Counted from the first letter of the stretch, positions 16,605-20,464 are shown. The stretch is 64,000 nucleotides of DNA from Alphaproteobacteria bacterium (GCA_965216395.1 OZ244156.1:1454674-1518673), one strand, 5' to 3'. Notes: generated by a model from the sequence alone, not told the origin. Made by a program: numbers and translations.

Positions 16605-17552
16605 TTAAAACGAAAGTGACCAACCAATTTTCGGGATTATCTTTTGACCCGTATCGGGCGATAGAAAGGCATCGCGCGCCGACCCGCCGCGTTTAACCAC
16701 TTCGATTAATTGGACAACCGATTTGTCGCTATAAACAAAACAACTACTGCCTTTTGATAGCGCTGTTTGACCATCATCAACAGCAAATATCCCATGGGCA
16801 GCTTTGGCGATCAAAGCGCCGTTGTGGTCGTTATGAGAAATATTTACTTGAATGTTTTTATCAAGAGAAAGGGGCGCTTTACACGTCGCCTTAATATTGC
16901 CATAGCCATCAATATAGACAATTTTATTCTCAGGAATATCAGGAATAATAGCTTGCCAATCCTCTATAATTGTCAGCAAAGTATTAAATTGATCCGATAA
17001 GGGCGTGTCATCACCCTTTAATATTTGCGCTACAACCAGCGGGTAAATATAAGCCGAGCGAAACTGCCCCAAAGCATGCAACGCCAAATCTGAATAATCA
17101 CCAGAATTAAGCACAGCAATATCGGCCAAATTATCGGGAATATTAACATGATAAAATTGATCAATGTCTTTTTTAATAAAAGACAGGGAAAAACCACTAT
17201 TCACCGCAAAGACCAATCGCCCGTTTTTTAATTTGACGAAACAAAACCCTTCACCCTCATTGGTTTTTTTCGCCGCTCGGTTTTTTTGCCGTGGTGCGGT
17301 ATTAACAAAAAAGATTTGGTTCTCCAAAGAATTGAGCGGGTTAAGCGCCCGCCGCCCTAAAATATATCCCGTTTCCAATGTGTTAAAAGCACCGACATTC
17401 ACCTTATCATAAGCGATAGTTTTGAGACCTTGTGTTGCCAAACTGCTATAAAGATTATCTTTGACCAAACCATGCGCATCATCATCATTATAATCGGCAA
17501 TTGTGACAATATGGACAGAGGTTTTTTGTGTATTCTTACGTGTAAAATTCAT
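16605..17552 (-). CDS. SAM hydrolase/SAM-dependent halogenase family protein (DUF62)
   Basis: IADY, FVNTAPR...NEGEGF, VNSGFSLSF, QFRSAYIYP, YIDGYGNIK. Confidence 0.8.
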   Translation of the reverse strand: MNFTRKNTQKTSVHIVTIADYNDDDAHGLVKDNLYSSLATQGLKTIAYDKVNVGAFNTLETGYILGRRALNPLNSLENQIFFVNTAPRQKNRAAKKTNEGEGFCFVKLKNGRLVFAVNSGFSLSFIKKDIDQFYHVNIPDNLADIAVLNSGDYSDLALHALGQFRSAYIYPLVVAQILKGDDTPLSDQFNTLLTIIEDWQAIIPDIPENKIVYIDGYGNIKATCKAPLSLDKNIQVNISHNDHNGALIAKAAHGIFAVDDGQTALSKGSSCFVYSDKSVVQLIEVVKRGGSARDAFLSPDTGQKIIPKIGWSLSF

Positions 17553-17795
17553 AATCTGATTTCCTTTTTTGAATATTTTTTGCGTGGATACCTAAAAGTT
17601 TTTGGTAAAAACTTTTGGTTTTTATTTGAAAAAGCGACGAAAGGAAATCAGTTTATAATGTGATTAAGCACAAGAGATGCTTGCGTGCGACCTTTCGTCG
17701 CCCCGCATTATCATGGACATATTGAATAATGTCTGATGATTAAAACTGTTAGATGTCATATTTTATCTTTACGCGAAAAATAGCATTTGTGTCAA
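17553..17795 (-). promoter_or_regulatory. Promoter, uORF (17759-17664, MTSNSFNHQTLFNMSMIMRGDERSHASISCA*) and switchable terminator/anti-SD leader
   Basis: TTGACA at 17795-17790. Perfect inverted repeats 17634-17644/17691-17701 (11 bp, followed by U5) and 17556-17567/17640-17651 (12 bp, covers the AAGGA SD) overlap at 17640-17644. Confidence 0.65.
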
Positions 17796-17902
17796 TTGAT
17801 TTTTTAGAAATAAATTTGATTATAACAACCCAAAACTTAGTTTGAAAATAGAATAAAAATTCTATAGACTGATTAAAAAAACAACTTACTTTCAGAATAA
17901 TT

Positions 17903-18670
17903 ATGAAAAATTTATGGTTCGGTATTATTGGTAACATGGGTCCAGAAGCTGATATTCTTTTTCAGGATATTATCAGAAAAGAAACCATCAAATATGGCGC
18001 TAAAAAGGATCAAGATCATATAAATATGATCGTTATAAAAAATTCTGATATTCCAGATAGGTCTGAAGCAATCAACGAAGGTGGTTTGAGCCCGGTACCA
18101 GAGCTTTTAAAATCAATAAAAATGCTTGAAAAATTTAAAGTAAAATTTGCTGTTATGCCATGTAACACAGCTCACTATTATAAAGACACGTTACAAAAAG
18201 AAACTTCTATCATTCTCATGGATATGATTGAGGCAACAATCAATCACATCAACCAAAAGAAACATAAAACTGTAGTTGGTGTTTTAATGACCAATGGCAG
18301 TTATAATTCAGGTATCTATGAGAAATATCTAAAAAATAATAATGTCAATTACAAACGATTGGACATCATAGAACAAGAAAAATATGTTCACAGCGCAATA
18401 TATGGTGAAAAAACCAACAAAAATTGTGAAACAGGGCAAAATATTAGAGAAAAAGATGGTATTAAATCAGGTATATATAAAAGAAATATTGAACGTTTAT
18501 CAAAAGCCATAGACATATTTAAAGATAAAAATGTTGATACGATCATTTTAGGCTGTACAGAAATTTCAATTGTTGAAAATGATTTAAGCAAAAAACATCC
18601 AGACATCCATTTTATTAACCCAATGAAAATTATTGCCAAAAAAGTAGTATCTTTGCATATGGGTGTCTAG
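17903..18670 (+). CDS. Aspartate/glutamate racemase family protein
   Basis: GIIGNMGPEA, KDQDHI, PDRS, MPCNTAH and LGCTEI two-cysteine motifs; AT-rich. Confidence 0.92.
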   Translation: MKNLWFGIIGNMGPEADILFQDIIRKETIKYGAKKDQDHINMIVIKNSDIPDRSEAINEGGLSPVPELLKSIKMLEKFKVKFAVMPCNTAHYYKDTLQKETSIILMDMIEATINHINQKKHKTVVGVLMTNGSYNSGIYEKYLKNNNVNYKRLDIIEQEKYVHSAIYGEKTNKNCETGQNIREKDGIKSGIYKRNIERLSKAIDIFKDKNVDTIILGCTEISIVENDLSKKHPDIHFINPMKIIAKKVVSLHMGV

Positions 18671-19852: not shown

Positions 19853-20464
19853 ATGACAGATAGATTTTTCGAAGAAAACAAATATGATATCGCGCGACAC
19901 ACTATTCGTAAAATTGTGCATGAAAAAATATTGGAAATAATAATCGAAGATGCTGAAGAGAAGTACAAGATTATACCTAATGAAGAAAATAAATTTCTGC
20001 TATGCTTTGTCAAAGATATAGTAAGCAATTATATAGCTATCAATGAAGAATTAAACTCTCCCGAAAGAAAAATGATTGAAGATAAAAATGGTGATTTAGA
20101 TGTGATGTTGTCTCAATTTGGACTTACTACTGATTGCGATAAAAAATCAAATAAAACGGAAGATTTTAATTATGGTTTTTCCAACAATTTTTTTATAGAA
20201 AAATTATATGGTGTAGAAGAATATTATGAAGATAGAAATCAGCCTGAAATTGATAAAAAATATGATTTTTATACTGATAATTTAGTCAAAAAATATGGTG
20301 AAAATGCAATATATATCGATGCCATTATTTGTGCTGAAAACTGTCTCCATAATTCACAAACCATAAATGAAAAAGAAATAACTATTTTAAACCAAGCCAA
20401 AGAAGTTTTAACGGCAGAGTTCGGCCAAGCAGATCCGTCGGATTTTCCTGATTACGTGCTTTAA
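19853..20464 (+). CDS. Hypothetical acidic protein
   Basis: 203-aa AT-rich ORF; TTTTGACATA (19793-19802) + TACACT upstream. Confidence 0.65.
   Translation: MTDRFFEENKYDIARHTIRKIVHEKILEIIIEDAEEKYKIIPNEENKFLLCFVKDIVSNYIAINEELNSPERKMIEDKNGDLDVMLSQFGLTTDCDKKSNKTEDFNYGFSNNFFIEKLYGVEEYYEDRNQPEIDKKYDFYTDNLVKKYGENAIYIDAIICAENCLHNSQTINEKEITILNQAKEVLTAEFGQADPSDFPDYVL

Follow-up and report, generated by a model that had tools for sequence, protein, structure and literature searches.

Organization of the locus

The window analysed here is a 64,000-nucleotide (nt) stretch of DNA from an alphaproteobacterium (GCA_965216395.1 OZ244156.1:1454674-1518673), and positions are counted from its first letter. We studied the 5' leader of a minus-strand gene (16605-17552) that encodes a 315-aa product, a divergent protein of the S-adenosylmethionine (SAM) hydrolase / halide adenosyltransferase family with a DUF62 fold. 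All leader elements lie on the minus strand. A previous sequence-only reading of the window had explained this leader as a methionine (Met) codon leader-peptide attenuator, and every feature that it listed was found in its place and on its strand.

Arm A of the leader (GCGACGAAAGG, 17701-17691) carries the string GAAAGG, a mimic of a Shine-Dalgarno (SD) sequence, and can pair with two partners. The local partner A' (GUCGC, 17687-17691) forms with it a 5-bp hairpin with the loop GAAAG (GCGAC-GAAAG-GUCGC, 17701-17687). The distant partner is arm B (CCTTTCGTCGC, 17644-17634), which pairs with arm A at 11 of 11 positions; the repeat finder placed 46 nt between the two arms, and the helix A:B reaches 14 bp when G-U pairs are counted. 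The interior of the A:B hairpin (17645-17690) contains a small hairpin, P2 (17682-17666; AAGCA at 17682-17678 with UGCUU at 17670-17666), and a block, AUCnCUUGUnnUUAA, that is common to the single close relative described below. A run of five U (17629-17633, TTTTT in the DNA) lies directly 3' of arm B.

Arm B is also part of an anti-SD strand (17634-17656), in which arm C (17656-17640) overlaps arm B (17644-17634). The string CCUUUC at the start of arm B is identical to part of the 16S rRNA 3' tail, which in this genome is CCUCCUUUCU. The SD region of the gene (AAAGGAAAUCAG, 17567-17556) includes the true SD AAAGGA and precedes the AUG start codon (17552-17550). Arm C (17651-17640) matches this region at 12 of 12 pairs; one A-A mismatch follows, and then four further pairs reach 17551, so that one helix (C:SD) covers the SD and the first two bases of the AUG, as had been proposed. 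The repeat finder reported the same duplex as 17551-17567 with 17640-17656 (17 nt, 94% complementary), and its calculated energy was -19.5 kcal/mol. The three complementarities of the sequence-only reading (arm A with arm B, GCGAC with GTCGC, and the 12-nt arm C with the SD region) were thus all present, and helices that share an arm are mutually exclusive.

The encoded protein

No match to the Pfam families PF01887 / PF20257 was found for the 315-aa protein even at E values up to 10, and likewise none in NCBIfam. Relatives at 33-38% identity bear PF01887/PF20257, and one of them is named SAM-dependent chlorinase/fluorinase. A profile from 26 family members matched MJ1651 (DUF62; 2f4n) and (R)-SAM hydrolase (22uy) in PDB with an E value of 4e-5. 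The AlphaFold (AF2) model of the protein reached a predicted local distance difference test score (pLDDT) of 85.6 and a predicted template modelling score (pTM) of 0.87. In the Foldseek comparison of this model with PDB, the top 31 matches were all DUF62 hydrolases, chlorinases or fluorinases (E 5e-15 to 1e-9, TM-scores 0.55-0.78), and the family members matched included 2zbv, SalL, MJ1651, PH0463 and fluorinase. Judged by profile and predicted structure, the protein is a divergent DUF62-fold member, and the earlier assignment to the SAM-hydrolase family holds at the fold level.

The window protein shares with DUF62 SAM hydroxide adenosyltransferases and with SalL/FlA the two-domain fold, the profile-level match and the QFRSRD-like and DGYGN-K motifs. 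It differs from them in lacking a Pfam match of its own and in an insertion of about 25-30 residues between the two domains. The same insertion marks a DUF62-like clade that comprises the window protein and its relatives P0002-P0018 and is missed by the Pfam models. The invariant motifs of the clade are DYxD-D-A, FVNTAPR, AVNSG, QFRS and DGYGN-K, of which FVNTAPR may be the counterpart of the canonical VDPGVG-type motif. Most clade members (from metagenome-assembled genomes of Hyphomicrobiales, Micavibrio and Geminicoccaceae) carry a C-terminal extension of about 25 residues, which is absent from the window protein and P0002.

Rarity and stability of the helices

The 236-nt leader had a folding z-score of -5.49 and its 116-nt SD part one of -5.32, and in both cases none of 200 shuffles was as stable. 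The arm sequences were found nowhere else in the 1.65 Mb genome. A census of perfect inverted repeats of at least 11 nt with a spacer of at most 100 nt counted 167 in the genome, against about 72 in block shuffles. Under the same thresholds only one pair of repeats in the whole genome shared an arm, and were hence mutually exclusive, and this pair is the present locus. The paired-helix arrangement exceeds chance, and the earlier statement that two mutually exclusive perfect repeats are unlikely to arise by chance was borne out by both the census and the z-scores.

Conservation in the closest relative

Two protein searches of 5.8 billion proteins were performed for close relatives of the window protein. 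Only one relative exceeded 46% identity: P0002, 52% identical, encoded on a 1,681-bp assembly contig (L027). The contig is syntenic with the window, with a SCO1 gene downstream (58-67% identity), and because of this synteny L027 is taken as an ortholog from a related organism. Coding nucleotide identity between the two loci is 0.61-0.62 and third-position identity 0.38-0.46, which indicates deep divergence. The first base of the contig aligns to 17706, and from that position on the comparison covers the leader.

Despite this divergence the leader core is well preserved, with 42 of 62 aligned columns identical. Arms A and B together keep 20 of 22 positions, arm B all 11; arm A reads GCGGCGAAGGG in L027, and both of its substitutions make G-U pairs with arm B. 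All 12 A:B pairs are kept, two having changed from A-U to G-U and one flanking pair from G-U to U-A. The local A:A' helix keeps its five pairs, with one compensatory change from A-U to G-C and two from G-C to G-U. The anti-SD strand follows the SD variant at each locus (UUCC:GGAA in the window, CUCC:GGAG in L027). The anti-SD:SD helix of L027, CUCCUUU:AAAGGAG plus four pairs, has an energy of -10.2 kcal/mol, against -19.5 kcal/mol for the 12 + 4 bp of the window. Covariation upstream of homologs, which the sequence-only reading had named as a check, is thus seen in the sense that all three helices persist in L027 with wobble or compensatory changes, but two sequences give it no statistical weight.

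The interior of the A:B hairpin behaves differently from its closing helix. The AUCnCUUGUnnUUAA block is conserved in L027, the predicted inner hairpins are not, and the interior is 46 nt long in the window and 30 nt in L027. Conserved sequence without conserved inner hairpins would be compatible with binding of a ligand or protein. A UUUUUCA string is present at both loci, and in L027 it is set off from arm B by a 27-nt insertion with a small hairpin of its own.

Proposed translational switch

The leader architecture recurs in the sole known close relative, and it is probably a real translational switch. In the specific form that we propose, the region of about 17707-17550 (minus strand) is a conserved structured 5' leader in which three parts together switch translation of the DUF62-like gene, a proposal that we hold at even weight. 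The three parts would be the SD mimic GAAAGG in arm A, the anti-SD strand CUGAUUUCCUUUCGUCGC (arms C and B), and the true SD AAAGGA with the AUG. When the switch is ON, arm A would lie on arm B over 11-14 bp, the anti-SD strand would be occupied, and the SD would be free. When it is OFF, arm A would fold back on A', and the anti-SD strand would lie on the SD and on the AUG up to its second base (12 + 4 bp), blocking binding of the 30S ribosomal subunit. During transcription A:A' would form first and be displaced by A:B once arm B is made; transcription of the SD would then allow arm C to nucleate on it with its unpaired 5' part and displace arm A.

Folding of the growing transcript gave the same order: A:A', then A:B, then C:SD together with A:A'. 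The full leader had a predicted energy of -57.7 kcal/mol in the SD-sequestered fold and of -51.7 kcal/mol with A:B forced, a gap of 6 kcal/mol. At 37 C the predicted probability of C:SD in the window leader was 0.98, so that the predicted equilibrium is OFF, and for this reason some factor would be needed to hold the ON state. The L027 leader was predicted to be bistable at 37 C (A:B 0.55, anti-SD:SD 0.39). We infer that translation of the gene is regulated, with A:B as the permissive fold. A sensor presumably exists, and a ligand or protein on the A:B hairpin is more likely to be the sensor than ribosome traffic on the upstream open reading frame (uORF) described below.

Several observations weigh against such a switch. 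Anti-SD-like and SD-like strings are complementary by nature. The comparison has two sequences only, and about half of the shuffle controls reached the observed covariation values of A:B and A:A'. Leader similarity is modestly above background, as 5 of 500 low-GC windows of the own genome and 15 of 500 Markov shuffles scored as high. A covariance model (R1) run over 320 genomes of the order matched only the own genome, the rest being AT-rich noise, and in the high-GC orthologs at about 43% identity the leader is short or missing, with nothing that resembles the motif. Three candidate promoters predict different transcription start sites (TSS), and the sensor is hypothetical.

The opposite explanation is that nothing switches here. 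The A:B helix would then be a conserved, stable 5' hairpin that stabilises the mRNA, is a site of processing, or works as a weak terminator or insulator between the divergent genes; C:SD would keep translation constitutively low; and the overlap would be incidental, both helices holding SD/anti-SD-like strings. Such a static leader agrees with an SD predicted to be 98% sequestered at equilibrium at every temperature up to 50 C, with the candidate promoter whose mRNA would begin at the base of arm A, in the manner of 5'-terminal stabiliser hairpins, and with the two-sequence covariation being not significant. It does not account for the overlap of arm B with the anti-SD strand being kept at both loci, for the predicted bistability of L027, or for the locus holding the sole exclusive repeat pair of the genome. 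A:A' is also kept with a compensatory change, and this helix would have no role unless A:B sometimes opens. We consider a static leader unlikely.

Two other known modes of control were considered for the proposed switch and rejected. An RNA thermometer does not fit: the window leader is predicted to keep C:SD above 95% at temperatures up to 50 C, and L027 responds to temperature in the opposite direction. CsrA-type GGA sites were also looked for by eye; arm A has AGGU/AGGG and not GGA.

Promoters and the upstream open reading frame

Three promoter-like sites were found on the minus strand. The best one, TTTTCA-18-TGnTATAAT with an extended -10 (17819-17848), has 10 of 12 matches with the TG present, by consensus match only; it would set the TSS near 17812, so that the leader would be about 260 nt long and contain the uORF. 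The second is the promoter of the sequence-only reading (17766-17795), in which TTGACA (17795-17790) is followed after 18 nt by TAAAGA (17771-17766). The TTGACA is present, but as a promoter the site is weak: its -10 matches at three of six positions and lacks the final T, the promoter scan does not list it, and the two other sites are better. Its TSS would fall near the uORF AUG at 17759 and make the uORF leaderless. The third candidate, CAGACA-17-GATAAT (17707-17735), has 9 of 12 matches; its TSS would lie near 17700, the first base of arm A, and leave the uORF outside the mRNA. The four sequencing runs that contain the locus sequence are DNA assemblies with long contigs. A promoter within the block conserved in L027 was also considered and discarded, as there is no conserved -35/-10 pair and the sole TATAAA falls within a 13-nt stretch that is deleted in L027.

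The uORF has 31 codons (17759-17664, minus strand) and reads MTSNSFNHQTLFNMSMIMRGDERSHASISCA, codons 14, 16 and 18 being Met. It spans arm A and A' and continues through P2, whose 3' end overlaps the UAA (17666-17664). No real SD was found for it, since upstream complementarity to the 16S tail is limited to AAAG. Upstream of arm A lies a hairpin, P0 (17712-17743; AUCAU-ca-GACAU / AUGUC-c-AUGAU), recognized from the minimum free energy structures and the sequence. In its 3' arm, complementarity to CAU accounts for two of the three Met codons, and the Met-codon string overlaps the -10-like GATAAT. A 3' remnant of an upstream gene with its terminator was also considered and rejected: the region does not resemble the C-termini of PhoH or cysteine desulfurase, and the frame is closed by a stop codon immediately 5' of the uORF AUG.

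The sequence-only reading gave the uORF a central role. In that scheme the position of a ribosome on the peptide string MSMIM decides whether an A:B terminator or the SD-sequestering fold C:SD forms, and expression is coupled to methionine. The uORF with MSMIM beside arm A does exist; it crosses arm A, and the three Met codons in five end 5 nt before it. The U run follows arm B, and DUF62-family enzymes turn SAM into methionine and adenosine (bioRxiv 10.1101/2025.08.29.672840; PMC12120602). However, the Met cluster is statistically ordinary: across all six frames the genome has 377 cases of at least three ATG per five in-frame codons, and 95 of these lie in short ORFs. The P0 palindrome accounts for the present cluster. 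The uORF lacks an SD; with one of the three candidate promoters it would be leaderless, and with another it would lie outside the mRNA. Neither peptide nor frame is conserved in L027, where the homologous frame, RCGEGL-stop, ends three codons after arm A and substitutions are distributed 9/4/3 over codon positions 1/2/3; we conclude that the peptide is not under selection.

The geometry of the scheme is also unfavourable. A terminator at A:B and sequestration by C:SD are both OFF states, and the scheme is left without an ON state. Because A' lies 3' of A, a ribosome stalled at codons 14-18 could not select A:B; stalled upstream, it would cover A (OFF) or leave A:A' and A:B both possible. The choice between two folds by Met codons was thus not upheld, and we regard methionine attenuation through this uORF as very improbable.

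Transcription termination without a Met sensor was considered on its own. Here the helix that precedes UUUUUCA (A:B in the window, the small inserted hairpin in L027) would terminate transcription, and some factor would prevent it. Five U directly after a helix of -18 kcal/mol speak for termination in the window, and UUUUUCA is conserved, preceded in L027 by its own 6-bp hairpin UAAGCG/CGCUUA. Yet the stems before the U tract are not homologous, the L027 hairpin is weak, and the U run does not adjoin arm B there, being displaced by 27 nt. In the window the stem closes a 46-nt interior, and the scan called no intrinsic terminator on the gene strand of the leader, so arm B with UUUUU could not be retained as the terminator that it had been taken for. 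No antiterminator pairing was found, and the conserved anti-SD:SD helix would be left unexplained. We therefore give termination of this kind a very small probability.

Between arm B and the SD there is one more hairpin, hairpin 3 (CCAAAAGUUUUU-ACC-AAAAACUUUUAGG, 17591-17618), which is perfect. The corresponding position in L027 also holds a hairpin; its base (AAAAG/CUUUU) is unchanged and its top (UUGGC/GCCAA) differs. Read on the plus strand (17591-17627), hairpin 3 is followed by TTTTTATTT and resembles an AU-rich intrinsic terminator. No plus-strand gene lies upstream of it, and it would end RNA antisense to the start of the DUF62-like gene. The U-rich tract of L027 sits on the gene strand, unlike this plus-strand reading of the window hairpin.

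Searches for further copies and families

The Rfam 15 scan at E values up to 10 gave only noise (MicA, CbSR9, mir-29), as the sequence-only reading had expected. No SAM-II element above the cut-off was found in the genome, and no transfer RNA (tRNA) or transfer-messenger RNA (tmRNA) was found. In the 10 genomes of the family, BLAST with the leader as query returned noise only. The same-genus genome has no DUF62-like gene, and a PhoH-like gene is located at the site. A search with the stem pattern GCGRCGAARGG-N25-55-CCTTTCGTCGC retrieved 32 matches in genome contigs and 51 in metagenome contigs, all of them unrelated. They were mostly high-GC hairpins, none lay beside a homolog of the gene, and the number 32 is close to a rough estimate of the chance number. 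The leader, represented by two sequences only, is a candidate cis-regulatory RNA, restricted to one lineage and outside the Rfam families.

Among the metagenome contigs a near-perfect palindrome of 66-70 nt, GCGACGAAAGGATCGCT...AGCGATCCTTTCGTCGC, recurred in many high-GC sequences (JGI metagenome contigs L062-L066, L070, L081, L085-L088, L091 and L111). It has the 11-nt arms of the leader by chance and is otherwise unrelated, possibly a repeated element of some soil bacterium.

A more specific form of the switch is a metabolite riboswitch, in which the A:B hairpin with the AUCnCUUGUnnUUAA block would be the aptamer and a ligand would stabilise A:B and turn translation ON. The ligand would be a SAM-related compound, such as SAM, its (R)-sulfonium epimer, S-adenosylhomocysteine (SAH), adenosine or methionine. 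A conserved closing helix around an interior that is conserved in sequence and not in its predicted inner hairpins accords with this, and so does expression-platform logic like that of translational riboswitches; with no match to a known family, including SAM-II, it would have to be a new class. Against it, an aptamer cannot be defined from a pair of sequences, and the length of the interior varies, from 46 nt in the window to 30 nt in L027. Riboswitch classes normally recur, whereas no other copy was found in the genome or in the 320 genomes of the order. We consider the riboswitch, with any of these hypothetical ligands, unlikely.

Comparison with known regulatory leaders

The proposed switch was compared with three groups of known systems. 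It is like the platforms of translational riboswitches (SAM-II/SAM-V, SAM/SAH and the thiM thiamine pyrophosphate (TPP) riboswitch) in that the anti-SD strand has two alternative partners, an upstream segment and the SD; mutually exclusive anti-SD pairings covering the SD and start codon were found in both the window and L027. A long-range closing helix beside the anti-SD, and a position in the 5' leader of a SAM-metabolism gene in an alphaproteobacterium-like genome, are further likenesses. It differs from these riboswitches in having no Rfam match, no defined aptamer or ligand, and two instances only. SAM-II, SAM-V and SAM/SAH are moreover compact pseudoknots that include the SD, whereas the SD of the window leader lies about 80-115 nt downstream.

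With ermC/cat translation attenuation the leader shares translational control, an SD held by an upstream complement, and a leader ORF that overlaps the segment capturing the anti-SD. In ermC the stalled ribosome masks segment 1 and frees segment 2 for segment 3; here the capturing segment, arm A, is itself inside the uORF and its ground-state partner A' lies downstream, 3' of A, so that stalling upstream could not release A. The window uORF also differs in having no SD and no known stalling peptide or inducer.

The amino-acid attenuators (trp, his, leu, thr, ilv, pheA) resemble the locus in a short ORF with clustered codons 5' of overlapping helices and in a U run after a helix. The locus departs from them in the 46-nt interior of its would-be terminator, in a U run whose adjacency is not conserved, in codons that are ordinary, and in a gene that is not a biosynthetic operon. 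Neither a compact conserved terminator nor, as far as geometry allows us to infer, a stalled ribosome favouring the ON fold was recognized. No Met-codon attenuator of this type was found in the literature searched.

Taken by its pairings, the leader would work like the SD-sequestering platform of a riboswitch and in part like ermC-type leaders, and we would class it as a new, lineage-restricted addition to a known kind, the structured 5' leaders with alternative anti-SD pairings. A larger claim, that A:B is the aptamer of an undescribed SAM-related riboswitch class that turns translation on, or that the uORF is the first methionine-sensing translation-attenuation leader, seems improbable to us.

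Genomic neighbourhood

Upstream of the DUF62-like gene, and divergent from it, is an Asp/Glu racemase-family gene (17903-18670, plus strand). Its best NCBIfam match is cysteate racemase CuyB, below the cut-off. The GC content of this gene is 28-31%, compared with 40-53% in its neighbours, it is convergent with a cysteine desulfurase gene, and it looks horizontally acquired. In the same-genus genome, the PhoH-like gene stands between cysteine desulfurase and SCO1 in place of the racemase gene and the DUF62-like gene, which makes the site a variable spot. Between the cysteine desulfurase gene and a 381-aa gene we found a 203-aa ORF (19853-20464, plus strand) in an island of 26-31% GC.

Significance

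The leader has been seen at two loci only, and it may be a lineage-specific curiosity. DUF62 SAM hydrolases have been suggested to clear the inactive (R)-epimer of SAM, and the regulation and physiological role of SAM hydrolysis are still being worked out (bioRxiv 10.1101/2025.08.29.672840; PMC12120602). The element is small, its helices are clearly exclusive, and it is open to simple reporter constructs. A dedicated switch before a SAM hydrolase gene, if true, would imply that the cell senses a signal tied to SAM quality or supply, and the switch would give a handle on that signal; if a ligand were found, the leader would represent a new riboswitch class tied to SAM hydrolysis.

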